From the UHGV virus genome UHGV-0081265: DNA of 13,782 nucleotides; one strand, given 5' to 3'. Shown here one piece after another: positions 1 through 13,644 of this stretch (within the stretch, counting starts at the first letter, position 1; each line of letters begins with the position of its first letter). Below the pieces are notes generated by a model that saw only the letters and a list, made by a program, of their open reading frames with translations, ran no database searches and had not been told where the DNA came from. This stretch comes from a virus. Made by a program: the position numbers and the translations under genes.

Positions 1-53
1 TCATCGGGCATTATCTGAACATAAAACACTATCAATAAGTTGGAGTCATTACC
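1..53 (-). mobile_element. IS1 terminal fragment (left-end inverted repeat); body of the element lies outside the window to the left
   Basis: Bases 1-53 are the exact reverse complement of bases 13730-13782. The sequence GGTAATGACTCCAACTTATTGATAGTGTTTTATGTTCAGATAATGCCCGATGA matches the IS1 left end as I recall it. Confidence 0.85.
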
Positions 54-721
54 GCTGTCATGCTAATAATAAAAAGAGCAACTGACACAGCAAAAAGGGA
101 TAAGCCTGATACTAAACGATTAAAATTAAATTTCCTTTTAATAACTAATGAACTAGCTAAATTGACCATGTTATAGGGGACCATAATTATAAGTCCTATT
201 AATATTATTTTTTCAGGAAGATTGTTCACCTGTATATGATGTTGAGCCAAGCTTCCAATATATACTGAAATCATAGAGGATATTACTATTTTTGCTGGGG
301 ATACATCTCGCAAAAATATGTATATATAGACTGTAATTGCACAAATCATTGCCCCTATTGGAAATGAGAGCATGAAAGCATAAGCTAATGTCGAGTAATT
401 AAGGTTTTCTGGGACTATACCATAAGCTATGTCAAGCTTAAACTTTGCGATCCATAAGCATACGGAATATGTAAAGCCAGTTACGCCCCATTTAACTACT
501 GCATTATTAAATACTTTATTTAATAAATCACGATATCCTATGTATACACTGGTTAATAAAGCTATAGATGATAGGAAAATTGGAGCGGCAATGTATATAT
601 TTTCTAGCCATAATGGGTTTTCTACAATCAAGTATCCAAAAGGTATTAAGTATATTATAGCCAATAGTTGAGGGTTGTTTAATTTTGGTGATGCATCAAC
701 TAACTTATTTTTATAATCCAT
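32..721 (-). CDS. polytopic membrane protein (at least 7-8 predicted TM helices), C-terminally truncated/altered by the IS1 insertion; function unknown
   Basis: 229-aa minus-strand ORF with many hydrophobic helices (e.g. LLAIIYLIPFGYLIV, IILIGLIIMVPYNMVNLASSLVI, LVSGLSLFAVSVALFIISMTAV). Very AT-rich. The last ~7 codons and the stop lie inside the IS1 end (positions 32-53), so the native 3' end is missing. It starts 10 bp after the upstream integrase stop. Confidence 0.55.
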   Translation of the reverse strand: MDYKNKLVDASPKLNNPQLLAIIYLIPFGYLIVENPLWLENIYIAAPIFLSSIALLTSVYIGYRDLLNKVFNNAVVKWGVTGFTYSVCLWIAKFKLDIAYGIVPENLNYSTLAYAFMLSFPIGAMICAITVYIYIFLRDVSPAKIVISSMISVYIGSLAQHHIQVNNLPEKIILIGLIIMVPYNMVNLASSLVIKRKFNFNRLVSGLSLFAVSVALFIISMTAVMTPTY

Positions 722-730
722 ACAACGTCC

Positions 731-1834
731 TTATTTCAACTTTAACGCCAAATCTTCAGCTTTTGGATGATAATACCGCATTAGCATTCTTGGATCTTTA
801 TGTCCTGTAATTTTGGTTAGTTCATGCATAGGGAAAATTTCAGCAAGTCGAGAAGTTGCTTCATGTCGAAGGTCATGAAATCTTAAATCTTTAAGGAAAG
901 ATTCATCACATAATGAGTTTGTTTTCTCGTATCGTTCTCTGGCTCGTTTTACAGCTCGGTCAAAAGCTCGGGTAATCGCGTCTGCACGCATATCAAAAAC
1001 CTTATCAGCAGCTGGCTTAGAATGTTCCTTGAGACTGGACAGTATCGTAATGGCTTTCGTTGATAAAGGGACATCGCGGGCATTACCATTCTTAGTATCC
1101 GGCAGATGTGCAACTCGCCGATCAAGATCGATAAAGCGCCATCGAAGCTCTGCGATTTCGCTACGGCGCATGGCTGTCTCTAACGCCAGAAGAATGATTG
1201 CTGGCAATACTAATGAATGTGTTGCGGCGATGATATGTTCGATCTCGTTGGCTATTTGCTTTCCTGACGTAACACCGGTTTTCTCAGAAACTACAGGCAG
1301 CGCTTCCAGGCGTCTGGTCCTGGAGTTCTTGGGTTGGGGTTTGCGAATGGCCTCTACGGGGTTCAGCAGGCTCTCCATGCCCCATTCTTTCCGCGAAACA
1401 TTGAATACATGAGAAAGTAAGGCCAAACGCCTTAAAACGGTTGCAGGAGCATAGATTTTCAACCATTCATCTCTCAGCTTGGCGACATCGGCACTCCTGA
1501 TGCTGGCCATATAGTTTTTCGCCAGCTGAGTGCCTTTTAGTATCCGCACCAATGATCGGTCTTGCACTGCCCCTTTTTTGTCGGGAACAATCTCTTTTTC
1601 ATATCGCGTTAGGGCTTCATACAATGTCGTAGATTCCGCTTCGCTGCGGCTAAGCCAAACTCCTCTCGCCATTTCTGACTCGATCATTTTGGCCCAAGCT
1701 TCTGCTTCTACTTTGGTGTTAAAGGTTTTGGTTTGAGAGGGAAAACCACGTTTACGGATTTGAGCTTCCCATTGGTAGTTACCACGTTTGCGTATAGTCG
1801 CCATTTCTGTCTGATTCCTAACGAACTGTGGCAA
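731..1834 (-). CDS. int: tyrosine-type site-specific recombinase / phage integrase
   Basis: 367-aa ORF with the catalytic signature of tyrosine recombinases: Arg in ETAMRRSEIAELRW, His-x-x-Arg in FHDLRHEATSRL, Tyr in MLMRYYHPK. Its start lies ~58 bp from the tRNA-Thr fragment. Confidence 0.85.
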   Translation of the reverse strand: MPQFVRNQTEMATIRKRGNYQWEAQIRKRGFPSQTKTFNTKVEAEAWAKMIESEMARGVWLSRSEAESTTLYEALTRYEKEIVPDKKGAVQDRSLVRILKGTQLAKNYMASIRSADVAKLRDEWLKIYAPATVLRRLALLSHVFNVSRKEWGMESLLNPVEAIRKPQPKNSRTRRLEALPVVSEKTGVTSGKQIANEIEHIIAATHSLVLPAIILLALETAMRRSEIAELRWRFIDLDRRVAHLPDTKNGNARDVPLSTKAITILSSLKEHSKPAADKVFDMRADAITRAFDRAVKRARERYEKTNSLCDESFLKDLRFHDLRHEATSRLAEIFPMHELTKITGHKDPRMLMRYYHPKAEDLALKLK

Positions 1835-1892: not shown

Positions 1893-1941
1893 CGCATTCG
1901 TAATGCGAAGGTCGTAGGTTCGACTCCTATTATCGGCACCA
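1893..1941 (+). other. partial tRNA-Thr (thrW-like) 3' segment, 49 nt, ending in CCA; attachment-site remnant, not a complete tRNA gene
   Basis: CGCATTCGTAATGCGAAGGTCGTAGGTTCGACTCCTATTATCGGCACCA matches the anticodon-loop-to-CCA portion of E. coli tRNA-Thr(CGU) as I recall it. The upstream sequence does not continue into the D-arm or acceptor stem. Confidence 0.7.
1925..1941 (+). repeat. 17-bp att core direct repeat, left copy (TCCTATTATCGGCACCA)
   Basis: Identical 17-mer occurs again at 13351-13367. Together they bracket an ~11.4 kb gene set that begins with an integrase. Confidence 0.75.
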
Positions 1942-2053
1942 TCTCTTAGTATTTCCAAGTCATCTCAAATCAACAAAACCCTTTAAAAACATAGATATTA
2001 CGCGATTTTTCGTCATTTGACGTCAACCCCTATCTCTTGAAATCAACATACAA

Positions 2054-2106
2054 TTGGGGGCACAATCGGGGGCATGTTCTGTTCGGTCTAGGAAATGTGC
2101 CCCCAA
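2054..2106. promoter_or_regulatory. GGGGGCA repeat cluster with an 11-bp inverted repeat (TTGGGGGCACA / TGTGCCCCCAA) ending at the integrase start codon; candidate Int arm-type sites and/or start-sequestering hairpin
   Basis: Direct GGGGGCA copies at 2056-2062 and 2068-2074, inverted copy at 2096-2106 abutting the ATG at 2106. Similar GGGGGCAT motifs sit on the other side of the att core at 13269-13292. Confidence 0.4.
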
Positions 2107-3287
2107 TGATGCTGAATGCCCGCAAGGTTGAAGCCGCTAAAGGAAAAGAGAAGAGCTATAAGCTATCTGATGGAGGTGGCCTGTACCTTCAGGTTGAACC
2201 TAATGGCTCGCGTTACTGGCGTATGAAGTATCGTTTTGCTGGTAAAGAGAAGCGCTTGTCCTTTGGTGTCTATCCAACAGTCACCCTCGCAGATGCCAGA
2301 CAAAAACGCGAAGACGCAAAGAAACTACTCGCAGCAGGTGAAGATCCTGGCGAAGTGAAAAAAGCAAAGAAGCATGCTTTAAACGCAGCGACCGAGACAC
2401 TTAACCCATTCAGAGAAGTGGCGTTAGAGTGGCACAAAATGAAATCTCCCAAATGGTCTGAGGGCTATGCTTCAGACATCATTGAGGCGTTTGAGAAAGA
2501 CATTTTCCCGCATATTGGACACAGACCTATAGCCGATATTCAGCCCCTAGAACTACTTGAAGTACTGAGGTTGATAGAAGCACGAGGCGCTATGGAGAAA
2601 GCGAAGAAAGTCCGTCAGCGATGCGGTGAAGTTTTCCGCTATGCCATCGTAACGGGTAGAGCAATCTACAATCCTGCACCGGATCTTGCCAGTGCGATGC
2701 AAGGACATGAAGCAGTCCACTATCCATTCCTCAAAGCCAACGAGCTGCCGGAGTTCTTTACTGCCCTTAACGCTTATTCAGGAAGCCCAATTGTATTGCT
2801 GGGGGCACATTTACTTATCCTGACGGGTCTAAGAACAGGAGAGCTAAGAGCAGGTGAGTGGCGTGAGGTGGATTTTGATAATGCGGTGTGGGAGATTCCC
2901 AAAGAACGTATGAAAATGCGACGTGCTCATATTGTGCCGCTTTCAAATCAAGCATTAGTCCATCTTGAAACCTTAAAAGAACTGACTGGAAACTATCCTT
3001 TGATGTTTCCTGGGCGTAACGATCCAAGTAAGTGCATGAGTGAGGCCAGTATTAATCAGGTCTTTAAGCGTATTGGATATGCTGGCCGTGTTACTGGCCA
3101 TGGCTTCAGACACACAATGAGCACTATTTTGCATGAAAAAGGCTTCAATAGTGCATGGATTGAAACCCAGCTTGCACATTTGGATAAAAATGCTATTCGG
3201 GGGATATACAATCATGCTCAGTATCTTGAGGGGCGTCGGGAAATGATGCAATGGTACAGTGATTTTATTGGTGGAACGGAGTCTTGA
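2106..3287 (+). CDS. int: P4-family tyrosine integrase (start moved to the internal ATG at 2106; the ORF-track start at 2037 is a TTG)
   Basis: N-terminal arm-binding-type region (KLSDGGGLYLQVEPNGSRYWRMKYRFAGKEKRLSFGVYPTVTLADARQKRED) typical of P4-like integrases. Catalytic Arg (LTGLRTGELR), His-x-x-Arg (GHGFRHT) and Tyr (IRGIYNHAQY). Lies directly downstream of the tRNA 3' fragment in the same orientation. Confidence 0.9.
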   Translation: MMLNARKVEAAKGKEKSYKLSDGGGLYLQVEPNGSRYWRMKYRFAGKEKRLSFGVYPTVTLADARQKREDAKKLLAAGEDPGEVKKAKKHALNAATETLNPFREVALEWHKMKSPKWSEGYASDIIEAFEKDIFPHIGHRPIADIQPLELLEVLRLIEARGAMEKAKKVRQRCGEVFRYAIVTGRAIYNPAPDLASAMQGHEAVHYPFLKANELPEFFTALNAYSGSPIVLLGAHLLILTGLRTGELRAGEWREVDFDNAVWEIPKERMKMRRAHIVPLSNQALVHLETLKELTGNYPLMFPGRNDPSKCMSEASINQVFKRIGYAGRVTGHGFRHTMSTILHEKGFNSAWIETQLAHLDKNAIRGIYNHAQYLEGRREMMQWYSDFIGGTES

Positions 3288-3290
3288 GTA

Positions 3291-4079
3291 ATGGCAAATA
3301 ATACTCTCAAGCTTCATCGAACTCATTATAGCATTAGTGAGACCGCTAAAATATTGGGCTGCGATGAGCAAGATGTTATTTATATTGCGGATGAAAAAGA
3401 CATTCCATTGTCGCTAAGAATGTGTGGGCGATGGTCTTTTTCAAAGCATAAAGTAAGAGATGTGGACTCCTTTATTCAGAATATAAACTCTTTGAAAAAA
3501 GACAAAGATGGTTTCAGTTATATATCTGAGTTTAGTTTGATTAAGATTAATGAAGTTAAAAAAGATAAAAAACTAGTGCTGGCGAGTACAAAAGGCTATT
3601 TCCAAATGCCACCAAAGGTTAAAAGTGATTTCGTTTTTTATGAAGGGCAGTTCCCGGAGTACCCATCATTGTTATCTCCTGCTGGTACCACCTATTCTGA
3701 AATGGTCAAATATATTCAAATTGACTGGAAAAATGATGATGGGTTTGGATATGAGGGAGATGCGTACCTGGAGCGGGAAGATGTAAAGAAATTGCATCTA
3801 ATATTAAATGATGATGTTTCTAATGATAAATATAAATCGTTATCAATTGCACAGCAAGAAAGACATGCTACCAAGAGAAATGAGATTCTAAGTGTAGCAT
3901 TATATCTTTATAAAGAGGATATGGCATACCGAAAGGAAAATGCAGCAGCCCTTGCTGACCTTATCTTTAGTCGGGCTGAGGAATTTTGGCCTGATAAAAA
4001 AGAGCCTCCGCTATCACACCCAATTATTAGCAAACTAATATCATCTATATTCAAGAAACCATCATTTACAAAAAATTAA
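3291..4079 (+). CDS. hypothetical protein: N-terminal excisionase/AlpA-type HTH plus ~190-aa domain of unknown function; AT-rich
   Basis: ATG 4 bp after the int stop with RBS GGAACGGAG. Residues ~14-60 (ISETAKILGCDEQDVIYIADEKDIPLSLRMCGRWSFSKHKVRD) resemble the Xis/AlpA helix-turn-helix. Markedly lower GC than the flanking int gene. Followed by a strong terminator. Confidence 0.7.
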   Translation: MANNTLKLHRTHYSISETAKILGCDEQDVIYIADEKDIPLSLRMCGRWSFSKHKVRDVDSFIQNINSLKKDKDGFSYISEFSLIKINEVKKDKKLVLASTKGYFQMPPKVKSDFVFYEGQFPEYPSLLSPAGTTYSEMVKYIQIDWKNDDGFGYEGDAYLEREDVKKLHLILNDDVSNDKYKSLSIAQQERHATKRNEILSVALYLYKEDMAYRKENAAALADLIFSRAEEFWPDKKEPPLSHPIISKLISSIFKKPSFTKN

Positions 4080-4086
4080 CAATTTT

Positions 4087-4121
4087 GGCGAGTAAGGAGA
4101 TTTTTCTTACTCGCCTTTTTT
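4087..4121 (+). terminator. rho-independent terminator ending the int-orf262 transcription unit
   Basis: 10-bp perfect stem GGCGAGTAAG / CTTACTCGCC, 9-nt loop, followed by TTTTTT. Confidence 0.8.
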
Positions 4122-4186
4122 ATATTTTTGAACGATGTTTTAATCCTCTTCGTTGATATAGATTGATACATAGAGAGGAACTCATT

Positions 4187-4387
4187 ATGGGGTTTACTGA
4201 TAATCGTCCTTCTGCTGACTCGCTCATTGATATGAAATTCATTACATCTGATTGTCTTTTTACTGATAAATGGATTTATAAACTGATTTCTCTGGGACGT
4301 TTTCCTAAACCAATCAAGTTAGGTCGTATGTCCCGATGGCGTGCTGGTGACTACTATGCTTGGCGTGATAGTCATTCTTCAGAGTAA
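4187..4387 (+). CDS. alpA: AlpA/Vis-family phage transcriptional regulator / excisionase-like DNA-binding protein
   Basis: Sequence FITSDCLFTDKWIYKLISLGRFPKPIKLGRMSRWRAGDYYAW is the classic AlpA-family HTH motif. Start placed at ATG 4187, 6 nt after RBS AGAGAGGA; the ORF-track start at 4163 is a TTG. Confidence 0.8.
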   Translation: MGFTDNRPSADSLIDMKFITSDCLFTDKWIYKLISLGRFPKPIKLGRMSRWRAGDYYAWRDSHSSE

Positions 4388-4423
4388 AAACATTAGTATT
4401 AGAAGCATTTATGAGGAGTTTAT

Positions 4424-5296
4424 ATGAATTACCGTCTACAACCAGCGGGGAGTCAATACATATCCCTTCCAATTAAGAATGAATATGTTTCCGTGTTAGG
4501 AAACTATAAAGTAAGTCCGTTTAAAGAAACTCATAGCGACACTGCATGTATTGTGCGAATTATTGAAATATTTTCATTGAATAAGCTGCGCGCTAAAGGT
4601 GAAAAGCTGTATTCACTTACGGGGTTAACAGTACCTGATACGGAAGCTGTGGCGAATGAGATCAACCTGCTCCTGAGCCGTTATGCCCAGTTGTGTCGTC
4701 AGGAAGAGGAAGAGTTATCTTTCCGGCAGCGTGAAGTGACAAATGCGGAAGTTGCATGGAAAAGCACATTCTCAAAAAACGGCGTCAGTAGCATTGCTGA
4801 AGCCAAAACGAATAAAACGGGGCATGCTGAACGAGCGGATGCTGAACGGTGTTACCATCTGGCTGTTTCTCGGCTGAATGAGCAACATAGCCGACTGAGC
4901 ACAATCAAGCTTTTACCGGGCGTACTGGTCGATGAAGTTAACTACATTGGTAAGGGAGTTGAGAAGCGTTTACTGAGCATATTTCCTCAATCCGGCCAGA
5001 TCCCTGCTGATTTTATTTCTGTGTTTAATGACAGTGACGTTGTTCGTGATATTAAATTTATTACAGATGCACTCAAATCTTTGTCTGATTCTGTGAATGA
5101 AATTATTAGCCGTTGTAGCGTTCCAACTGATCGTTATGTATTAAATAACGGTGGAATGGCAAGAGCTATGGCTTACAGGGAGTACTATCGAGCAGATAAT
5201 TATGTATTACGTTCAGTCGTTAGTGACCGGGATTATGTTGAGCATGTAATGAAATACAATCGGGTTACTGAGTACAAAAATAAAATCTTTTCTTAA
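4424..5296 (+). CDS. hypothetical protein, 290 aa; possible head-morphogenesis partner of the downstream capsid homolog
   Basis: Good RBS (GAGGAG) before ATG 4424. Sits immediately upstream of the GpN-like gene (23-bp gap). No family recognised by eye. The capsid-related role is inferred from position only. Confidence 0.6.
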   Translation: MNYRLQPAGSQYISLPIKNEYVSVLGNYKVSPFKETHSDTACIVRIIEIFSLNKLRAKGEKLYSLTGLTVPDTEAVANEINLLLSRYAQLCRQEEEELSFRQREVTNAEVAWKSTFSKNGVSSIAEAKTNKTGHAERADAERCYHLAVSRLNEQHSRLSTIKLLPGVLVDEVNYIGKGVEKRLLSIFPQSGQIPADFISVFNDSDVVRDIKFITDALKSLSDSVNEIISRCSVPTDRYVLNNGGMARAMAYREYYRADNYVLRSVVSDRDYVEHVMKYNRVTEYKNKIFS

Positions 5297-5318
5297 ATAC
5301 TAAAAAAGGTGAAAAACT

Positions 5319-6323
5319 ATGTATGCCTTCAAAACTGAAAGGCCGGACGCAGCACGTCGTTATCATAATAAATTCGTCACTGGTACTAACTATCAGGAGG
5401 AATCAAACAGACGCTTTGCATTAAGCGAACCCACTGAAAATATACTGCGTACCTCAATTCTGGAATCCGGGTGGCTTATTAAAAATATCACCCTACGTGA
5501 TGTTAACGCCGTGTCAGGTAATGCCGTCAATATTGGTGCCAGTGAACTGCATACCGGACGTGTGGATGGTGGCCGTTTCCACAAAAAAATGGCAATCAAT
5601 GGTACGGAGTTCTTTCTGACAGAGACGGATACCTGCGCCCGGATCAGCTATTCCGATATGTCTCATATTTACCATACCGGCGTGCCGGATGAGTTTGAGA
5701 AAACGGTTGAGAGCTTTTTTTCCCAGGCATATGCGCTGGACATGCTGCGGGTCGGTTTCAACGGTGTGTCGATTGCAAATACTACAAACCCGGAAATCAA
5801 TAAAAAAGGCGAGGATGTCAATATTGGCTGGCATGCACTGGCGAAAGCTTACGGGAACGGGAAGCAAATCATTTCTGAGCCTGTCACGCTGGGAGAGTCT
5901 GGCACCTGGAAAAACATTGATGCTCTGGCCAACCATCTGATTACTGAGCTTATTGCTGAGCAGTTTCGTGAAGATCCCCGTCTGGTTGTACTGGTTGGGG
6001 CAGAGCTGGCAGCACATCAACGCCTGAAGTTATTTAATGCCGCAGACCGCCCGGCTGATGTGAATGCGGCACAGATGGCGACAAGTTCTGTTGCTGGCCG
6101 CTTTGCGTTTATTCCCCCGTTTATGCCGGGTAAGCGTCTGGTAGTAACGACGCTGGATAATTTGCATATTTACACTCAGGCGATAACACGGTGGTTTCGT
6201 GCTGAGTTTGATGATGAAAACAGTGAATACGTACATTCCTACCTGCGTAATGAAGGCTATGCACTCGGTGAACCTGAACTGTACGCGGCTGTCGATGAGA
6301 GCGCCCTGACGTTTGCTGATTGA
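5319..6323 (+). CDS. P2 GpN-family major capsid protein homolog (HK97-fold capsid protein)
   Basis: 334 aa with RBS AAGGTGA. Several blocks align to P2 GpN as I recall it: ALDMLRVGFNGV vs SLDFIMAGFNGV; DALANHLITELIAEQFREDPRLVVLVGAELAA vs DALVMDATNNLIEPWYQEDPDLVVIVGRQLLA; TTLDNLHIYT vs TKLENLSIYY. Similar length to GpN (357 aa). Confidence 0.7.
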   Translation: MYAFKTERPDAARRYHNKFVTGTNYQEESNRRFALSEPTENILRTSILESGWLIKNITLRDVNAVSGNAVNIGASELHTGRVDGGRFHKKMAINGTEFFLTETDTCARISYSDMSHIYHTGVPDEFEKTVESFFSQAYALDMLRVGFNGVSIANTTNPEINKKGEDVNIGWHALAKAYGNGKQIISEPVTLGESGTWKNIDALANHLITELIAEQFREDPRLVVLVGAELAAHQRLKLFNAADRPADVNAAQMATSSVAGRFAFIPPFMPGKRLVVTTLDNLHIYTQAITRWFRAEFDDENSEYVHSYLRNEGYALGEPELYAAVDESALTFAD

Positions 6324-6336
6324 CTTAGCGACAGAA

Positions 6337-6363
6337 AGACCCGCTCAGAGGCGGGTCTCGTTT
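6337..6363 (+). terminator. putative rho-independent terminator after the capsid-homolog gene
   Basis: 8-bp stem AGACCCGC / GCGGGTCT with 6-nt loop, followed by a short T-tract (CGTTTA). Confidence 0.55.
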
Positions 6364-6520
6364 ACAGCATCAGGAAAAATGAAGAACTATTTTTAAGCAG
6401 AGGCTTAAGCATGCCAGCGTTAATTAATCCAGGCAATCATCAGTTTTCGGTTATAAATTTCTTGCCTCACAAGGAATACGCGGGATATAGTTCAAAGGTT
6501 GCCGCAAAATCGGCAGCCGG

Positions 6521-6786
6521 GCGTAGGAACCCGTGTAATCTAACGGCGACACAACACGCGCCAGGCGTGTTTTTTTGTGTCGTAGCTTTGACTCACCTTC
6601 GTTTTATGGTGTGGTGGCTGACTGCATGTTTTTATTTTTTACGCCACATCATCAGAATTATGGTAGTCCAGGCGGGGCAGCTTTCGGGCTGGCCGGTATC
6701 CGTTAGAGCCGGTATTCCTACCCCCGTCTGGGCTACCACCCATGAGCGTAGGAACTCCGGTGGTAGCGTTACCCGCTATCTAACGG
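6521..6786 (+). ncRNA. P4-type RNA immunity region: two direct repeats (seqA-like 6521-6546, seqC-like 6746-6786) flanking a complementary seqB-like element (6700-6721); candidate CI-RNA-like immunity RNA
   Basis: GCGTAGGAAC...ATCTAACGG occurs twice. Between them, CCGTTAGAGCCGGTATTCCTAC is the reverse complement of both sub-blocks (GTAGGAA and TCTAACGG). An internal terminator (6554-6576) and a 9-bp stem (GCTACCACC / GGTGGTAGC, 6731-6767) are present. Position upstream of the small-ORF/primase operon matches P4 organisation. Confidence 0.45.
6554..6576 (+). terminator. rho-independent terminator inside the immunity region
   Basis: Stem ACACGC / GCGTGT with 5-nt loop, followed by TTTTTT. Confidence 0.7.
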
Positions 6787-6797
6787 AGGTTGCCATT

Positions 6798-7001
6798 ATG
6801 GCTACAGTCCCTGCTTTATCTCACCCTGAATTTACCTTTGTTTTTCTGGCTGTCCGCCGTACAGACCGTGATGCCTGTCCACGTCCTGTGCGTGTAATCG
6901 CAGACTGCGAGCATGCTGCACGACTCAAACTTGCCACTGAATTTATCCTGAGCTTTGCTGCCCGTATCCCTGTGAAAAGCGCCGGGGAGGTGGTTGCATG
7001 A
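6798..7001 (+). CDS. small hypothetical protein (~67 aa), first gene of the replication operon
   Basis: ATG 6798 preceded by GGAGG. This is the C-terminal in-frame part of the 196-aa ORF-track entry, whose upstream part overlaps the terminator and repeats and is probably not translated. Stop overlaps the next start (ATGA). Confidence 0.5.
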   Translation: MATVPALSHPEFTFVFLAVRRTDRDACPRPVRVIADCEHAARLKLATEFILSFAARIPVKSAGEVVA

Positions 7002-7234
7002 AATCCATGAATTTTAAGCAAGGCTGCATATTGAGCGAACTAGGTGAGAGTCGTCTGTTACGGGCGGCACTGGCCAGTGAGTTTCTTGCAGAGGTCCTGT
7101 CCGTTCCCACAGTGAATGGAGCGAGAACTGTTTCAGCGGAAGGCGCTGCGGCTTTAGTGGCCTGTATTGCCGAACAACTGGATGGCGTTGTTAAGGAAAC
7201 CAGCACAATTAAGGGAGTGATGCGCGATGAATAA
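6998..7234 (+). CDS. small hypothetical protein (78 aa), translationally coupled
   Basis: ATG overlaps the upstream stop (ATGA), RBS GGGGAGG. Position is analogous to the epsilon/derepression genes of P4-like elements; no motif recognised. Confidence 0.55.
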   Translation: MKSMNFKQGCILSELGESRLLRAALASEFLAEVLSVPTVNGARTVSAEGAAALVACIAEQLDGVVKETSTIKGVMRDE

Positions 7235-7637
7235 TAATCAAAATTTAAAGGCGCATGCTTTACGAACAGCAGTCTTACGGTACTACATTGCTGATTCATT
7301 CATTTCCTTAATGGAGCGTGTTCATAATGAACCTGTTTATATTGAAGATGGCGAACGAATAGAACTCACCCACGAAAAAGTGGTGAGTAATATTATTTAC
7401 CATATTGAAATGCCGTGGGTGAATGAGTTTGGGGCTGATGCAGGTTGCATACTGGCCGCAGAAAAACTGGAAAAAATGCTTAAACCGGGCTTTATGTCAG
7501 AAAATATTCGCCTGTCAGTTTTTGGTGTCACAGAGATGCGTGAGGTTTACCGGGATATTATTTTCGGTGCACCTGATGGCGAACTACCCGAAGGTTTTGA
7601 GTTTGTGAAGCCGGAAGGTCAGGAGGTGCTGCTGTGA
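7227..7637 (+). CDS. hypothetical protein (136 aa), translationally coupled to the primase
   Basis: Start overlaps the upstream stop. Its own stop TGA overlaps the GTG start of the primase gene. Confidence 0.6.
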   Translation: MNNNQNLKAHALRTAVLRYYIADSFISLMERVHNEPVYIEDGERIELTHEKVVSNIIYHIEMPWVNEFGADAGCILAAEKLEKMLKPGFMSENIRLSVFGVTEMREVYRDIIFGAPDGELPEGFEFVKPEGQEVLL

Positions 7638-10321
7638 AAACACCGTCTGTATCCACGATTTCCGGGGCTGCAATTGGGCGCTGGCCTTATATCCTGTCAG
7701 CATTAGGTATCAAAGTACCGTCCGCAGGACATCATGGGGCTTGCCCTGCCTGTGGTGGCAAAGATCGCTTTCGGCTGGACGATAAAGCGGGGCGTGGGAC
7801 GTGGTTTTGTAATCAGTGCGGTCATGGCGATGGTCTTGATCTGGTTCGTCTGGTGACAGGAAGAAAGATAAAAGAAGTCGCCGGGATGGTATCTGAGGCG
7901 CTTGCATTACCAGAAATACAGGAGAAGCCCGCTTTGCCTGCCAGGAAAAAGGCCGCAGGAAAAGAAGCGGGCGCGGAGCGATATACCAGACTCAGACAGC
8001 AGTCCTGCAATGGTGAACCGGTCTATCTGACAAACAAGGGCTTACATGGGTATTCACTTCCCTTGCTGTCACAGCCTTTGAATCTGGCCGGAATAACATT
8101 TTCCTCCGGTTCATTACTGCTGCCGTTGACGGATATTTCCGGGAATATTACTGGTGGCCAGCTTATCAATCCTGACGGGGATAAAAGTCTGCTGCCCGGT
8201 AGCCAGCTGTCTGGCGCATTCATTGCCCTGACCGATATACCCGCTGAAACACCTGAACAGGTGATTATAACAGAGGGTTTTGCCACGGCGCTTACCGTCA
8301 GTCTGCTGACTGAAGGATGGATCGTGGCGGCTGTTGCTGCCACCAATTTACTGAAGGTGACGGAGCAGATCCGGAAACGCTGGCCGGAAACCCGGATCAT
8401 TCTGGCTGGCGATAATGATCTGGCTGACGGGAAAGAAAACACCGGGCGTATTCAGGCAGAGAAAGCTGCCAAAGCAGTGGATGGCTGGGTAACGCTCCCT
8501 CCGGTACGCCATAAGGCTGACTGGGATGATTATCGGCAGGAAGTGGGGAAAGAACGGGCGAGAGATGCCTTTCGTGAAGAAATGACGCTGCATGGCAAAG
8601 GGCAGACCCGTTTACCAGAAGGGTTCCGGCTGACAAAAGAATATTTGTGGTACGACAAGCTGGTTAATAAGTCTGATGGTGATACGGAGATACGAAATAT
8701 CAAAATTTGCAGTCCGTTACGGGTGACGGCAATCACCAGTGATGCTGATGGAAGTAATTACGGGCGTTTGCTGGAATGGGAAGATACCAACGGAAACAGC
8801 CGTAAATGGGCAATGCCAATGGAGATGCTGGGTGGCAGCGGGGAAGAGCTGCGCCGCGTTCTGCTGGTTAACGGGCTTTCTTACATCAACATTAACGGTA
8901 TGGCCAGAGCATTCCTTATGGAATATATCTCGCTGTGTAAACCGGACAGAAAAGTAACCTGTGTAAATAAAACGGGCTGGCACGGCGGGGTTTACGTTCT
9001 CCAGGATGAAGTGATAGGACGTGAAGCCCAGTCAGTCATCTTACAAACGTCGAGTGTGCAGGGGCGTGATTTTCGTGTCAGCGGTACATCAGAGGACTGG
9101 CGTGAAAATATAAGCCGTTACTGCATAAATAATGCCCGTCTTGCCTTTGCGGTGAGTCTGGCATTTGCTGCCCCCCTTCTGAAACTGGTTGGTATCGGCG
9201 GTGGAGGTTATCACCTCAAAGGGGAATCAACGGATGGTAAAACCACGACGATGAAAGTGGCTGCTTCAGTATGTGGTGGAACAGATTTCTGGCATACGTG
9301 GCGGGCGACGGGGAATGCCTTAGAAGGAACGGCGAGCCGCCGTAATGATGCCACGCTGATGCTGGATGAAATCCGGGAGGTTGACGGCAGGGAGGCGGGG
9401 AATATCGCTTATATGCTGGCTAACGGGCAGGGCAAAGCCAGAGCCAGAACAGATGGTTCGGTAAGGGAAACCAACCGCTGGAATCTGTTGTTTCTGTCCA
9501 CCGGGGAACTGTCACTGGTAGAACATGCGGCAAGCGCCGGGGAACGTACGTATGCCGGGGTTGAGGTCAGAATGATCCAGATCCCAAGCGATTCGGGCAA
9601 ATATGGCGTGTTTGAAGAACTTCATGGCTTCAGTAGCGGGAAAACCCTGGCAGAGCATCTTGAGCAGCATGTAGCGCATTATCATGGCGCACCATTCCGC
9701 GACTGGCTGCATTGCCTGACCGCTGATCTGCCGGAACTGACCAGCCAGGCCAAAGCCTTATTGAAAGAGTACACCCGAAGGCTGACGCCGGAAAATGCCG
9801 GGAATCAGGTTGGCCGGGCTGTTACCCGTTTTGCTCTGGTTGCAATGGCCGGGGAACTGGCCACAAAAGCGGGCATCACAGGATGGCCGGAGGGAGAGGC
9901 CTTTCGTGCCGCCCAAAGTTGTCTGGCTGCATGGATGGCTGACCGGGGCCATACAGCTAATCAGGAAGATAAAGCGGCACTTGAACAGGTACGGGACTTC
10001 ATGACGCGTAATCAGTTCAGTCGGTTTGCTGACTGGAATGACGACAGGAACCGGCCTGTTTCAATGATGGGATTCAGAAAAGTCGATAAAGGAGACAACG
10101 TGACAGAGCCGGTTGTGACGTTCTACGTTCTCCCATCAGGCTGGAAGGAGATCTGTAAGGGATTTGATTCGCGTAAGGTGGCTAGGTTGTGTGTGGACGC
10201 GGGCTGGCTGAAACCCGGTGAAGATGGCCGGACGCAAAACAGCATTCGCCTGCCAGAAATAGGGCTTAAACGTGTGTACCAGTTCAATACGCAGGTACTG
10301 GGAAGCGCCGAACCGGAGTAA
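7634..10321 (+). CDS. P4 alpha-like bifunctional DNA primase-helicase
   Basis: 895 aa. N-terminal zinc ribbon (CPACGG...CNQCGH), TOPRIM motifs (IITEGFATALTVS; ILAGDND), P-loop helicase Walker A (GESTDGKTT) and Walker B (LMLDEIRE). GTG start 8 nt after AGGAGG. Confidence 0.9.
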   Translation: MKTPSVSTISGAAIGRWPYILSALGIKVPSAGHHGACPACGGKDRFRLDDKAGRGTWFCNQCGHGDGLDLVRLVTGRKIKEVAGMVSEALALPEIQEKPALPARKKAAGKEAGAERYTRLRQQSCNGEPVYLTNKGLHGYSLPLLSQPLNLAGITFSSGSLLLPLTDISGNITGGQLINPDGDKSLLPGSQLSGAFIALTDIPAETPEQVIITEGFATALTVSLLTEGWIVAAVAATNLLKVTEQIRKRWPETRIILAGDNDLADGKENTGRIQAEKAAKAVDGWVTLPPVRHKADWDDYRQEVGKERARDAFREEMTLHGKGQTRLPEGFRLTKEYLWYDKLVNKSDGDTEIRNIKICSPLRVTAITSDADGSNYGRLLEWEDTNGNSRKWAMPMEMLGGSGEELRRVLLVNGLSYININGMARAFLMEYISLCKPDRKVTCVNKTGWHGGVYVLQDEVIGREAQSVILQTSSVQGRDFRVSGTSEDWRENISRYCINNARLAFAVSLAFAAPLLKLVGIGGGGYHLKGESTDGKTTTMKVAASVCGGTDFWHTWRATGNALEGTASRRNDATLMLDEIREVDGREAGNIAYMLANGQGKARARTDGSVRETNRWNLLFLSTGELSLVEHAASAGERTYAGVEVRMIQIPSDSGKYGVFEELHGFSSGKTLAEHLEQHVAHYHGAPFRDWLHCLTADLPELTSQAKALLKEYTRRLTPENAGNQVGRAVTRFALVAMAGELATKAGITGWPEGEAFRAAQSCLAAWMADRGHTANQEDKAALEQVRDFMTRNQFSRFADWNDDRNRPVSMMGFRKVDKGDNVTEPVVTFYVLPSGWKEICKGFDSRKVARLCVDAGWLKPGEDGRTQNSIRLPEIGLKRVYQFNTQVLGSAEPE

Positions 10322-10347
10322 TTATCGCGTGAGTCTTATTTTTATGA

Positions 10348-10540
10348 GGTAACACTGGTAACAGAGGTAACGCCCGCTACTGATGCGGTTCTTCAGTGTT
10401 ACCAGTCAAAAATACTGACTGGTAACAGAGGTAACAAAAAATGGTGCGTTACCACGCGTTACCTCTTGATTATGTTAACTGGTAACAGATTAAATCCTTT
10501 TAAATCAATAGCGTTACACGTGTTACCAGTGTTACACGTT
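10348..10540. repeat. iteron array (GGTAACA / TGTTACC heptamers, at least 10 copies, direct and inverted); candidate crr/ori-type binding sites for the primase-helicase
   Basis: Copies at 10348, 10357, 10366, 10397 (inv), 10421, 10430, 10448 (inv), 10457 (inv), 10481, 10522 (inv). 17-bp direct repeat CTGGTAACAGAGGTAAC at 10355-10371 and 10419-10435. 12-bp perfect inverted repeat TGTTACCAGTCA / TGACTGGTAACA at 10397-10408 and 10416-10427. Lies immediately 3' of the primase gene, as P4 crr does; P4 iterons (TGTTCACC) are similar. Confidence 0.6.
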
Positions 10541-10603
10541 CAGAACAAGAGGTAGGGACCCAAATCCCTTCTTCTGGCGGGCAACAGTAAAGGGCACAGA
10601 ACG

Positions 10604-10876
10604 ATGAAGATGATGAGAATGTACTGCCCCACATGTCAGGCAGTAGCGCGGATAGGTAAAACAAACAGGAAACACCCACAACTGTACGATGTGTACTGCT
10701 ATTGCTCTAATGTGGAGTGCGGTCACTCGTTTGTGATGAATGTTGCTTTCTCCCATTCCGTTAGTCCAAGCGCGCTGAACGGGCAGGGGAGGGTTAAAGA
10801 GCTAATTGATGCCATTCCACCCGAGGAGCGGGAAAAGGCTTTAAAGTTGCTGCTGGCTGCGCAAAAGAATGGGTAA
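10604..10876 (+). CDS. Ogr/Delta-family zinc-finger late-gene transcriptional activator
   Basis: Cys spacing C-x2-C-x22-C-x4-C (YCPTCQ...CYCSNVEC) is the Ogr/Delta signature. Size (85-90 aa) is Ogr-like. The true start may be the internal ATG at 10619. Confidence 0.8.
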   Translation: MKMMRMYCPTCQAVARIGKTNRKHPQLYDVYCYCSNVECGHSFVMNVAFSHSVSPSALNGQGRVKELIDAIPPEEREKALKLLLAAQKNG

Positions 10877-11482
10877 AGTATGCGTCGGGAATGGCCGATC
10901 CGTTCCCGGAACCTGACCACAGGATTTCAGTTTATACGAACATAAAATTATTATTTTTCAATTTGTTATGTTTTTCGTATTTCACGAACCTTCATAAAAT
11001 CACACACCTAAAATAAATTATCCATTTAATATCATAGTGTTGCGTATTCAGGCCACAAATGCGACGGACAGTAAAACTGAAAAAAGCTGAATTTCTTTTC
11101 ATTCTTTTCAGTTCCTGCCTCGCAGTGCATCCCCAGCACGGACGCGGGCTGGCGGTATCGTTTGTAAAAAATCACAACTGAAAAATTTTAGTGATATGAA
11201 AACCGCAGGCGGGTGCGGTGTAGTGCGATTTTGGTCTTATAAAGATTTGTGTCTTAAAATTAATTAATGGTTTTAACTATTTGTTTGGAATTAATTTCAC
11301 AATGTACATGTTTGATATGAATGATAAATTAGTATATGCTTGAGTAAAGAAATGATGTATATTTTTATGGTCGAGGTGTAAGCGCTTTTTTGATGTATTT
11401 AATAGGTGTATGTTTTTATTAATCGGAGAATTGTTAATATTTATAATTGTTATAAAATAGAAATCGCTATGAAGGTGTGTAT

Positions 11483-12085
11483 ATGAGAGATAATTCAAAT
11501 AAAGTAAAGGGGTATGTAAGACGTAAAGTTGATTTGTATATTTTGTCATTAGCTATTTTATTTTGTTTTTTTATTTTTATTACAATAAAATTTCCTGTGT
11601 GTTTTGGGGCTAAATGTGAGTTCATTGGCTGGTCTTTGCTGTTGAAAAATAATATTGTTCCCTTGATTTGCGTAGGGTTGCTTTTATATTGTGGGGTGGC
11701 CTACAAAAGGTTTCAATATGACACAAATAAAAGTGTCGAACTTCCAATGAAAATAACAAAAATTGAAAAAATAAATTATGAGCACCTTACCTTTTTAGCC
11801 ACATATATTATCCCATTGATTACATTTGATTTTGAAAAAGAAAGGTATGTGATCGTTCTAGCAGTTCTCTTGATAATTATGGGTATTATTTATATTAAAA
11901 CGGATTTGTTTTACGCTAATCCATCCTTGGCTTTATTAGGGTTTAATATTTATAAGTTGGATGTGAGTATAACAGGAGGTATTAATAAAACAGGGCTAAT
12001 ATTAATTACTAGGCGACAGTTAAAAGAAAATGACATGATAAGTTATATTGTGCTTGATGAAAGAGTTTACTATTCTGGAGATTAA
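11483..12085 (+). CDS. small 4-TM membrane protein (200 aa); first gene of an AT-rich two-gene cargo; KwaA-like architecture, unverified
   Basis: ATG 11483 after RBS GAAGG. Four hydrophobic helices (LYILSLAILFCFFIFITI, IVPLICVGLLLYCGVAY, LTFLATYIIPLITF, YVIVLAVLLIIMGIIYI) then a ~60-aa soluble tail. Very AT-rich. A 10-bp gap separates it from the next gene. Confidence 0.65.
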   Translation: MRDNSNKVKGYVRRKVDLYILSLAILFCFFIFITIKFPVCFGAKCEFIGWSLLLKNNIVPLICVGLLLYCGVAYKRFQYDTNKSVELPMKITKIEKINYEHLTFLATYIIPLITFDFEKERYVIVLAVLLIIMGIIYIKTDLFYANPSLALLGFNIYKLDVSITGGINKTGLILITRRQLKENDMISYIVLDERVYYSGD

Positions 12086-12094
12086 GGATTAAAT

Positions 12095-13078
12095 ATGTCA
12101 CCGCAGCAATTGGATAAAAAAGGCTTGGATGATAATCTAAGTTATTATATTAATAATAAAGATGATATTTCTGTTATTGTTTATGCCATTCTAAAAAATA
12201 GCCCTGTTGCATATCGAATGGATATAGAGGGAAGCGCTCAAGATGGCCTCAAAGAATTATTTTTAGAAAGTATAAAAAATAATATCATTGATAATGATGA
12301 TATCAGTATTTTACCTCTTTCGTCAGCAGATGAAAGAAATAATGTTATTTATCATTACGATATTGAATGGCCTGATGAGTTAACCTCCATGCAAAGTATG
12401 CTTGGGCAGCAAGGGGAGAGTGTTTTTGATTTTAATGTACAAAATATTGAAGATATTAGAGTGTTGCTAATTTGTATTGGTAATGTACAACAACAAATTA
12501 TACTCTACAAAACAATGGCTCCAGTCAATATTTTCTCTCGCTCAGGTTTTTTTCTAAAAAAATCAGCAACAAGACTTGAGGAAATTGAAGATGATTTTTT
12601 TCGAGTTAGTGATAATTTTCAAATTATCAAAGTTGAAAATGATTTATATGTGGTAGATCTTAAGTTAATCGAGAAAATGTTTGGTTTTCACGAGGTTATC
12701 AAAAAAGAGGCTACACTTGGCATGAATGCCATTGAGAGTATGAATATTATCACTGATATAAATGTGATAAAAGAACTAATAGATGATGTAAAATATGCTA
12801 GAAAACTAACAAGGATAGCAAAATCTTCTCCAGTAATATTAGCTAATATTGAAAATGAAAAAATTATAGAGTTTTGTAAAACCTACCCAGTGTTGGTCAA
12901 TAGAATCAGATTTAATGAAGATGGAACAAAGATCGCACTTGACACGAAGGTTTCAAAAGATCTATTTATTAAAATTCTGATGGATGATTTTTTAACCTCA
13001 CAGTTGACTCAATTTTATTATGAGAGTCTAGCAAAAGATGCAGTAAAAATAGCCGCTGATAATACTAAAGAAAACTAA
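12095..13078 (+). CDS. 327-aa soluble protein, second gene of the two-gene cargo; size and context fit KwaB (DUF4868) of Kiwa, but domain not confirmed
   Basis: RBS AAGGA before ATG 12095. Acidic, AT-rich, no TM segment, no obvious nuclease or NTPase motif by eye. Followed by a terminator hairpin. Lies in the variable position next to attR. Confidence 0.65.
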   Translation: MSPQQLDKKGLDDNLSYYINNKDDISVIVYAILKNSPVAYRMDIEGSAQDGLKELFLESIKNNIIDNDDISILPLSSADERNNVIYHYDIEWPDELTSMQSMLGQQGESVFDFNVQNIEDIRVLLICIGNVQQQIILYKTMAPVNIFSRSGFFLKKSATRLEEIEDDFFRVSDNFQIIKVENDLYVVDLKLIEKMFGFHEVIKKEATLGMNAIESMNIITDINVIKELIDDVKYARKLTRIAKSSPVILANIENEKIIEFCKTYPVLVNRIRFNEDGTKIALDTKVSKDLFIKILMDDFLTSQLTQFYYESLAKDAVKIAADNTKEN

Positions 13079-13083
13079 TTAAT

Positions 13084-13109
13084 ATTGTGGTGAGATTATT
13101 CACCACAAT
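13084..13109. terminator. terminator-like hairpin after the cargo operon
   Basis: 10-bp perfect stem ATTGTGGTGA / TCACCACAAT with 6-nt loop in AT-rich context, 6 bp after the stop of the 327-aa gene. Confidence 0.5.
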
Positions 13110-13268
13110 AATATTATCTAATATATTGATTGTGTTTTAAGTGTTTTAATTCTATTGTGAAAAAATTGACTTTGTTTTGATTTGGCAAAATTATAGCTTT
13201 TCTATTACTCACCCTGATGAAATGATCGATTAATCTATCTAGCATGCTGAAGTTACAGCTAAGGTGTA

Positions 13269-13292
13269 GGGGGGGGGCATTTTAGGGGGCAT
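13269..13292 (+). promoter_or_regulatory. G-run / GGGGGCAT repeats adjacent to the right att core; candidate integrase arm-type sites
   Basis: GGGGGGGGGCAT (13269-13280) and GGGGGCAT (13285-13292), same motif as the copies next to the left att core at 2056-2075. Confidence 0.35.
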
Positions 13293-13350
13293 TGATATGA
13301 TTGTTGTATTTTTTTATTAACAAAAACATTGTGTTATCGTTGTATTTTGT

Positions 13351-13367
13351 TCCTATTATCGGCACCA
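13351..13367 (+). repeat. 17-bp att core direct repeat, right copy (TCCTATTATCGGCACCA)
   Basis: Exact copy of 1925-1941 (the tRNA-Thr 3' end). Upstream sequence no longer matches the tRNA, so this is the element-distal junction. Confidence 0.75.
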
Positions 13368-13644
13368 TTAAAATCAAATTGTTACGTAAGATCTTATCAT
13401 TCTCCCACCAAAAAATTATCTTAATGTAACAGCTGGTGTAAGTAAATTCTATCAACGAAGATCAATCTTATCTACTGACCAAAAAGGCCTGATAGGGCTT
13501 CGCTCACTATACATCCTTGGCTGCAGGTTTAGTTGTACACCACTCCTAAATTTAATGTGTTGGCAATGTGTTCAATAAAGCTCGAACAAATTAGCTCATT
13601 ATGATCGGTTAATACTTCAACTTCTGGTTGCATGATTGTTTGTC

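Follow-up and report, generated by a model that had tools for sequence, protein, structure and literature searches.

The virus genome UHGV-0081265, the whole 13,782-nucleotide stretch of which was analysed (hereafter the window), carries at positions 4424-6323 two adjacent genes, the first encoding an all-alpha protein of an undescribed family, here named X, and the second a major capsid protein of the P2 (GpN-like) family. Both are part of an element at bases 1925-13368 that is best explained as an integrated, helper-dependent phage satellite of 11.4 kb, with a P4-related backbone and the gene layout of Gram-negative phage-inducible chromosomal islands (PICIs). We suspect, at a little less than an even chance, that X and the capsid protein form a self-encoded head-assembly module, in which X would act as scaffold or size determinant for small procapsids specific to the satellite. 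An earlier note on this DNA had seen here a P4-like satellite with a GpN homologue of its own, at the place where the P4 proteins Sid or Psu would be expected.

A P2-family capsid gene in a lineage of satellites

The capsid gene (5319-6323, plus strand, preceded by the Shine-Dalgarno sequence AAGGTGA) encodes a protein of 334 amino acids (aa) with the HK97 fold. It matches Pfam Phage_cap_P2 (PF05125) over profile positions 16-325 of 327 (E=4.8e-67; 226.8 bits, cut-off 27) as well as PHROG 70 'major head protein' (E=4.5e-86), and among PDB sequences phmmer finds the phiRSA1 capsid (7oz4, 1e-21) and P2 gpN (7jw1, 3e-16). The best Foldseek match of its AlphaFold model, which has a predicted local distance difference test score (pLDDT) of 81.9, is gpN in the P4 procapsid (7jw1; E=1.8e-23, template modelling score 0.70-0.79), followed by other HK97-fold shells, with 7oz4 at E=1.2e-22. 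The assignment to the GpN family made in the earlier note is thus well founded, although the protein scores 202 bits with NCBIfam TIGR01551, under the equivalog cut-off of 219.65 and so outside the curated equivalog, which makes it a true but atypical family member. The idea that it is a close paralogue of P2 GpN had to be given up: identity is about 25% to P2 and 186, as against 49% to the ESSI2_ev015 capsid and about 50% to ESSI-2/ev015-like capsids at large. Judged from these sequence relationships, the satellite capsid derives from the ESSI-2/ev015-like lineage and not from P2 itself. The likeness is uneven along the protein, the satellite consensus sharing 25-45% of its residues with phage capsids in the N-terminal ~140 residues versus 55-75% in the rest.

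A scan with the capsid profile, using one genome per species, gave 80 loci, which were annotated by profile and phmmer searches and which split into two contexts, satellite loci with a capsid identity to the window of at least 52%, and 53 phage loci at 41-53%. Where the flanks reach, satellite loci have the order (int) alpA-X-capsid-...-DUF927 primase-delta-cargo-(int), whereas in phage loci ogr-portal-terL diverges from full-length GpO scaffold-capsid-terS...sheath. The head-operon setting of phages, in which scaffold O, capsid N and terS M lie beside portal and terL, is found neither for the capsid gene of the window nor for that of any relative at or above 52% identity. In all satellite loci of both subclades that include the upstream flank, X immediately precedes the capsid gene, while the other neighbours vary; it was never found in the 53 phage loci, and a tblastn search of X against 50,697 phage records gave no match. 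The same records hold no capsid more than 51% identical to that of the window.

The satellite loci come from about 15 genera in five families of Enterobacterales (Citrobacter, Buttiauxella, Franconibacter, Atlantibacter, Kosakonia, Phytobacter, Siccibacter, Intestinirhabdus, Erwinia, Pectobacterium, Pantoea, Yersinia, Morganella, Proteus, Providencia and Xenorhabdus), and among 5,426 complete genomes of E. coli, 450 have the X-capsid module. When a neighbour-joining tree is rooted on P2 gpN, the capsids of the satellites fall into one clade (60 of 60 bootstraps), nested among the capsids of ESSI-2/ev015-like Peduoviridae, which are their nearest relatives (46-53% identity). The capsid gene is intact and under purifying selection, with pairwise ratios of nonsynonymous to synonymous substitution (dN/dS) of 0.05-0.18 in comparisons with the window; those of X are 0.14-0.20, and those of the primase 0.02-0.11. 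That the capsid gene is a decaying passenger is excluded by a dN/dS of about 0.1. The constant adjacency of X and capsid, the single clade and the dN/dS values together indicate that the pair is old, co-inherited and functional.

Protein X

X (4424-5296, plus strand, Shine-Dalgarno GAGGAG upstream) is a protein of 290 aa. It lies between an AlpA-like gene and the capsid gene, which is followed by a P4-type immunity region, so that the two open reading frames (ORFs) have the coordinates and position that had been described for them. No match to X was found in Pfam, NCBIfam, PHROG or PDB sequences, and no DNA-binding or enzymatic domain is detectable. Its AlphaFold model (pLDDT 86.5, predicted template modelling score 0.80) has twelve helices, including a long helical hairpin (residues 77-117 and 131-161), and this modelled build, elongated and all-alpha, looks like that of a scaffold; a Foldseek search of the PDB with the model gave nothing better than E=0.26. 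When the profile of the X family was compared by hhalign with Sid, Psu and a GpO-type scaffold, that of ev015, the probability was below 1% in each case; for the scaffold it was 0.85%, and BLASTP gave E=1.4, so that no homology to the C-terminal scaffolding domain of GpO was detected. X as a disguised Sid, Psu or GpO is ruled out by the profile comparison, and it remains the unknown protein that the earlier note had called it.

The family is small, with 89-106 clusters at 90% identity, all of them hypothetical proteins of Enterobacterales; a set of 1.84 billion proteins contains only 59 representatives of it, almost all with lengths of 275-300 aa. In the subfamily of the window X ends in K-N/K-K/R-I/L-F-S, which resembles the conserved C-terminal tail of phage scaffolds, K-F/Y-K/N-F/Y-L/I; the X of Xenorhabdus satellites ends in LNYM or LNFM, and the scaffolds of Xenorhabdus phages in FNYL or FNFL. 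This likeness of motifs is a lead only.

Between two closely related loci from Kosakonia and Phytobacter (L015 and L018), X has a dN of 0.093 versus 0.009 for the capsid gene, i.e. it has changed about ten times faster, and a dN/dS of 0.86 versus 0.18, as would be expected if selection on X alone were relaxed or diversifying, or if X alone had recombined. A distant homologue, P0277 (385 aa), is fused to an N-terminal Cox/AlpA-like excisionase helix-turn-helix (HTH) domain (phrog_575, E=1e-6). This arrangement, which parallels that of the alpA and X genes, may be genuine or an artefact of gene calling.

A sister clade with a protease fragment

Satellites with 52-59% capsid identity have a third gene directly after the capsid gene, which encodes a Phage_GPO_N fragment of 173-177 aa and was found in Yersinia, Providencia, Pectobacterium, Xenorhabdus, Proteus, Morganella and Pantoea. 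The fragment spans profile positions 3-145 of 268 and retains the residues aligned to D19, H48 and S107 of P2 GpO, which are the catalytic triad of that protein. It stops where the phage homologues, all of them, run on into a C-terminal scaffolding domain of 90-120 residues. With capsid and protease present and the scaffolding domain missing, X is the only conserved partner left unexplained. The subclade of the window (capsid identity of at least 64%) is monophyletic (60/60) and lacks the protease gene, there being only a GC-rich hairpin between capsid gene and immunity region. This hairpin directly follows the capsid stop codon in the window (6333-6362, plus strand; AGACCCGC-tcagag-GCGGGTCT, then cgttt) and was not called by a terminator scan. 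We take the GpO fragment as ancestral and the protease gene as lost in the subclade of the window. The series from phage O-N through satellite X-N-O (protease only) to satellite X-N reflects the stepwise reduction of a captured head module.

In four loci, L026 (Pantoea), L027 (Morganella), L029 (Siccibacter) and L022 (Pectobacterium), the gene for X, GpO_N, capsid or primase is split into two or three ORFs. These splits may be frameshifts or assembly errors; as they stand, they imply that decaying copies exist beside intact ones.

The satellite and its backbone

The chromosome of E. coli AH04 (NZ_CP081706.1) matches the window at 100%. The satellite is bounded by two exact copies of an 18-bp direct repeat, TCCTATTATCGGCACCAT, at a spacing of 11,426 bp, the left attachment site attL at 1925-1942 and the right one, attR, at 13351-13368; the same repeat also flanks the Citrobacter relative L010. 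The repeat ends in ...GGCACCA, which may be read as a tRNA 3′ end; ARAGORN found no intact tRNA in the window. Repeats ending in ...GGCACCA or its complement were seen in the window and in L003, L006, L012, L015, L023, L027 and L085, and at least three distinct att sequences occur across the elements. Just outside attL, a second, unrelated tyrosine integrase (367 aa; 731-1834, minus strand) and a membrane-like ORF of 229 aa (32-721, minus strand) belong to a neighbouring island, and the flank in AH04 also has IS1, IS66 and CP4-6-type ykfI/yafW genes.

The P4-type tyrosine integrase (2037-3287, plus strand, as are all genes described in the following) has the Pfam domains Arm-DNA-bind_3, Phage_int_M and Phage_integrase and shares 43% identity with P4 Int across 409 aa (E=8e-112). 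Between it and alpA, in the position of P4 cII, a 262-aa protein (3291-4079) shows a weak N-terminal HTH_17 match only and no similarity to P4 cII; a strong terminator with a 13-bp stem was called directly after its gene (4087-4115). The first gene of the alpA-X-capsid unit encodes a small AlpA/Vis-like HTH regulator (4163-4387, annotated start 4187), labelled HTH/AlpA regulator in RefSeq, which matches Pfam Phage_AlpA at E=6.4e-4 (20.0 bits against a cut-off of 21) and P4 orf88 at 34% identity (E=4e-4).

Downstream of the capsid gene, the P4-type immunity region (6498-7001) comprises an isrK RNA (6498-6575; Rfam 71.8 bits, gathering threshold 50), a C4/CI-type antisense RNA (6656-6743; 81 bits, gathering threshold 45) and an Icd-like ORF (about 6799-7001), and the cI region is 57% identical to that of P4. 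The 196-aa 'Icd-like' ORF of RefSeq (6411-7001) is overcalled, the isrK and C4 RNA genes sitting inside it; the NCBIfam Icd-like model fits its residues 141-188, so that only the last ~48-67 codons are concerned. Two small conserved satellite ORFs of 78 and 136 aa follow (6998-7637; phrog_38507, E=1e-54, and phrog_5991, E=3e-37), with a weak match among them to DUF5375, the family of P4 orf106.

The alpha-like primase-helicase (7634-10321) has Zn-ribbon, Toprim and DUF927 domains in Pfam and matches phrog_1139, DNA primase (E=2e-186); its N-terminal third (317 aa) is 38% identical to P4 alpha and the remainder is DUF927. An iteron cluster downstream of the primase gene (10354-10547), built from ACTGGTAACAGAGGTAAC and from GTTACC units in inverted orientation (direct repeats of families D2 and D4), is a candidate replication origin, conserved on both strands in all related satellites and analogous in position to the crr region of P4. 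It is followed by the gene for an Ogr/Delta-type zinc-finger late-gene activator (10604-10876; Pfam Ogr_Delta, E=5e-14; phrog_603, E=2e-31). About 60 bp before the delta start, the sequence TGTTACACGTTCAGAACA (10530-10547) overlaps the iterons and forms a TGT-N12-ACA dyad such as Ogr/Delta proteins bind; it is conserved only in the closest relative (L010).

Downstream of delta, a non-coding block of 165 bp (11073-11237) that is conserved in all relatives is a candidate cos site. It is 70-81% identical between satellites of different bacterial families and resembles, weakly but collinearly, the sequence on the left side of P4 cos (local score 41, versus 22.6 ± 3.7 and a maximum of 37 for shuffled sequences). 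Beside attR the element carries as cargo the anti-phage system Kiwa (KwaA and KwaB, 11477-13078, annotated as kwaA/kwaB in RefSeq), and Pfam KwaA and KwaB are present in Providencia relatives as well. The slot for cargo, which extends from delta and the candidate cos block to the att end, is a hotspot of defence genes: in three strains of Yersinia ruckeri with otherwise identical elements (L003-L008, about 16300-18300) it contains DndB-like, GmrSD-like or HATPase genes.

Absence of Sid and Psu and classification of the element

No frame of the window encodes Sid or Psu. In tblastn searches of all six frames P4 Sid gave nothing at E<=10 and P4 Psu noise only (E=0.7); Psu and epsilon taken together gave noise only at E>=0.09, and the element contains no epsilon homologue. 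Together with the profile and structure comparisons of X, this bears out the statement that nothing here resembles Sid or Psu.

The reading of the element as P4-like stands only in part. In its favour are the related integrase, the alpha primase domain, the cI region, the C4 RNA, with antisense RNA immunity of the CI/C4 type, and the Ogr/Delta activator. However, of the seven components in the published definition of P4-like satellites (int, psu, delta, sid, alpA, epsilon, alpha) only four are present, namely int, alpA by a weak match (E=6e-4), delta, and alpha for its primase domain alone, which places the element below the published Type C, which lacks two (PMC10085698). The characters of Gram-negative PICIs that are present include int, alpA, a primase with a downstream iteron origin, a capsid-morphogenesis gene, unidirectional genes, a size of 10-20 kb and att repeats; terS is missing, no ORF in the window or in the satellite loci matching that of ev015. 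The int-alpA-capsid-primase-ori layout fits Gram-negative PICIs at least as well as P4-like satellites. Of the further genes that define capsid-forming PICIs (cfPICIs), no portal or terminase was found, the capsid gene standing alone here, with a GpO_N protease added in the sister clade.

Possible role of the X-capsid pair

Since the gene pair is kept by selection, a role in head assembly or in interference is reasonable; the capsid gene is probably morphogenetic, and the satellite probably makes or reshapes a small capsid of its own, a mode of helper exploitation to which few studies have been devoted. The size of the satellite is under tight control, the 15 att-bounded elements measuring 10.9-12.2 kb despite differing cargo, i.e. 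about 37-40% of the 28.8-30.9-kb ESSI-2-like genomes (P4 has 11.6 kb), and such a constrained size fits a small head. In the mechanism that we tentatively favour, a two-gene head-morphogenesis module directly downstream of alpA would replace the sid-delta-psu operon of P4. X, presumably structural, would serve the capsid protein of the satellite as a dedicated scaffold or size determinant during assembly, in place of the C-terminal scaffolding domain of GpO. The shell, presumably small and built of satellite rather than helper protein, would fit the ~11-kb genome of the satellite and not the ~30-kb genome of the helper, and would in this way both spread the satellite and interfere with the helper. 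Genes for portal, terminase, head completion, tail and lysis are absent from the element, so that these functions must come from the helper, which in the subfamily of the window would also provide the maturation protease. The helper would most likely be an ESSI-2/ev015-like or other P2-type myovirus, switched on via Ogr/Delta cross-activation. A more far-reaching proposal, which we regard as doubtful, is that the lineage as a whole has replaced the Sid/Psu cage with a minimal procapsid kit of its own, made up of capsid protein, X scaffold and, ancestrally, a protease-only GpO, and steals portal, terminase, connectors and tail.

Several observations weigh against a self-encoded head-assembly module. 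X lacks detectable homology to any scaffold, the likeness of C-termini concerns a short motif, with an aromatic residue in the last five positions in 22 of 39 full-length X representatives, and X could instead be a regulator or an anti-helper factor. The subfamily of the window has no protease gene, so that its capsid protein either depends on a helper protease or needs none. Upstream of alpA, X and delta, the relatives show no conservation of the P2-type late promoter box (TGT-N12-ACA), which in the window occurs at chance level (4 versus 3.5 expected); with no conserved Ogr-type box, the timing of the module with the late genes of the helper is left unexplained. The 19-mer of P2/P4 cos is absent from the window even when three mismatches are allowed, and the candidate cos block has no match in the fetched ev015-like phage loci, including three genomes with both elements; between satellite and ev015-like loci nothing in common was found beyond the capsid and delta genes. 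In E. coli the satellite outnumbers prophages of the ev015-like type about tenfold, with 450 of the 5,426 genomes versus 29-48, and AH04 is not among the 48 genomes that have an ev015-like late region. For EcCICFT073, the one Gram-negative PICI tested, with lambda as helper, deletion of the capsid homologue did not restore normal phage plaques, i.e. interference was not lost, and transfer was reported to be independent of such capsid genes, with the DNA in full-size heads (PMC6092414, PMC10111431).

E. coli TK3887 (NZ_AP044767.1) combines the satellite module, at 97.8% identity, with the late region of an ev015-like prophage, at 97.4%, and this strain is a natural candidate for a satellite-helper pair.

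Other roles of the pair have to be weighed. The satellite capsid protein might, instead of forming the shell by itself, enter helper assemblies, for example as pentamers, and force the capsid protein of the helper into a small T=4 shell, with X as chaperone or as bridge to the helper scaffold. Such co-assembly would resemble that of SaPIbov5 Ccm, a 23%-identical capsid homologue that fills the pentamers of small capsids but cannot dispense with the capsid protein of the helper (PMC8569155, PMC6893505). The subfamily of the window, which has neither protease nor portal, certainly relies heavily on the head proteins of its helper, and about 50% identity and full-length alignment to ESSI-2-like capsids are compatible with mixed capsomers. 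The protease of the sister subclade, which looks active from its residues, and the presence of X in both subclades exceed, however, what a vertex substitute would need; moreover, the N-terminal third, where contacts to the helper scaffold or to neighbouring subunits would be expected, is the most diverged part, and identity to the common P2-like capsids of E. coli is only about 25%. We consider co-assembly unlikely, if still worth serious attention. A capsid homologue that acts with X as a pure decoy, poisoning helper head assembly while the satellite is packaged in ordinary helper heads, would agree with the common interference of satellites with their helpers (PMC6893505), with the other defence cargo of the element (Kiwa), and with EcCICFT073, which is packaged in full-size heads despite its capsid homologue (PMC6092414); the fast change of X in some pairs (dN/dS 0.86 for L015 versus L018, with the capsid at 0.18) is also what an arms race would produce. 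Yet this reading is improbable, as a size kept at 10.9-12.2 kb, whatever the host or cargo, points to a small head that matches it, a decoy has no need of the co-inherited, seemingly active protease of the sister clade, and the strong purifying selection on the whole capsid since before the split of five bacterial families fits a protein that assembles.

It could also be that X is not structural at all but a regulator or manipulator of the helper, such as an anti-repressor or derepressor in place of P4 epsilon or a partner of AlpA, the capsid protein then acting alone or being a passenger of little function. The lack of an epsilon homologue, the position of X directly after alpA, the distant family member P0277 with its AlpA/Cox-HTH-X fusion, and the absence of a phenotype when the capsid homologue of EcCICFT073 was deleted (PMC6092414) would all agree with this. 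We nevertheless hold it to be very unlikely, because X stays beside the capsid gene in every satellite with an upstream flank, in both subclades and among otherwise varying neighbours, and because no DNA-binding or enzymatic domain can be detected in it.

Significance and comparison with known systems

Satellite-encoded capsid homologues are already established, as Ccm, as the 'capsid morphogenesis' component of Gram-negative PICIs and in cfPICIs. The earlier view that a capsid gene would be an unusual parasitism strategy holds insofar as the gene is real and probably morphogenetic, but with these precedents it is less exceptional than supposed. In the literature searched, no description was found of a P4-related backbone combined with a P2-family capsid, an all-alpha partner and an ancestral protease-only GpO, nor was the head-morphogenesis module of this lineage described in the searchable literature, X being without family assignment. 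Satellites of the P4-like and PICI types rank among the main carriers of anti-phage defence, and they shape the dynamics between phages and bacteria in Enterobacterales; the present lineage is found in some 8% of the complete E. coli genomes and in five bacterial families or more. If its module builds or seeds small capsids, it would add a third solution to size control to the external cages (Sid, TcaP) and the internal competing scaffolds (CpmB), within the satellite lineage that has been studied best. Such elements blur the line that satellite-finding software draws between its P4-like and PICI classes, and the software probably mis-types or misses them. With its two or three genes, this compact system might also be of use in engineering small transducing particles.

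P4 has P2 as its helper and uses Sid as an external scaffold and Psu for decoration. With P4 the satellite shares its size (11.4 versus 11.6 kb), an Int of 43% identity and an alpha primase domain of 38% identity, RNA immunity of the CI/C4 type with an Icd-like ORF, an AlpA/Vis-like gene heading the main operon, an Ogr/Delta activator, iterons downstream of the primase and a defence hotspot beside the integration end. It differs from P4 in lacking sid, psu and epsilon, in having delta downstream of the primase instead of in a divergent sid-delta-psu operon, in a helicase part that is DUF927 and not that of P4, and in possessing the capsid gene and X.

Gram-negative PICIs such as EcCICFT073 (c1499) and PmCI172 have the same unidirectional int-alpA-(capsid homologue)-primase-ori arrangement within 10-20 kb (PMC6092414, PMC10111431, PMC10085698) and likewise encode a homologue of a helper-type major capsid protein, the capsid gene being present in 21 of 29 reference Gram-negative PICIs (PMC10111431). 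PmCI172 forms small capsids with a myovirus helper and without Sid or CpmAB, and the resident phage of its strain is Mu-like (PMC6893505); the capsid homologue of the EcCICFT073-like HE-PICI 11capE belongs to the lambda-E family and the helpers are lambdoid (PMC10111431). The satellite described here has instead a P2-family capsid, no terS that could be found, P4-type immunity RNAs and Ogr/Delta, and neither its X partner nor the GpO_N of the sister clade has been described for PICIs of the EcCICFT073/PmCI172 type.

The closest capsids (46-53%) are those of the ESSI-2/ev015-like Peduoviridae (Quadragintavirus and relatives), whose GpO protease domain is homologous to that of the sister-clade satellites; in these phages, however, the capsid gene lies between a full-length GpO scaffold-protease and terS, near portal and terL, and in the satellite between X and the immunity region.

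SaPIbov5 Ccm is likewise a satellite-encoded HK97-fold homologue of the helper capsid, used for small capsids, of which it forms the pentamers, and for helper suppression (PMC8569155). Its setting is different, with a Gram-positive host, a siphovirus helper, a switch from prolate to isometric heads, and action together with the helper capsid protein and no X-like partner, and there is no sequence kinship beyond the fold (Foldseek E of about 6e-9 for 7rwz versus 2e-23 for gpN).

The cfPICIs, which build whole capsids of their own, have in common with this lineage a major capsid protein and a prohead protease (here in the sister clade), as well as tails taken from the helper, as we propose here (PMC10085698). 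They add portal, head-tail adaptor, connector, terS, terL and HNH, none of which is found in this satellite with its much smaller kit. If the lineage does assemble procapsids from such a kit, it would represent the missing intermediate between satellites that remodel the capsids of their helpers, such as P4, SaPI1 and PLE, and the fully capsid-forming cfPICIs.

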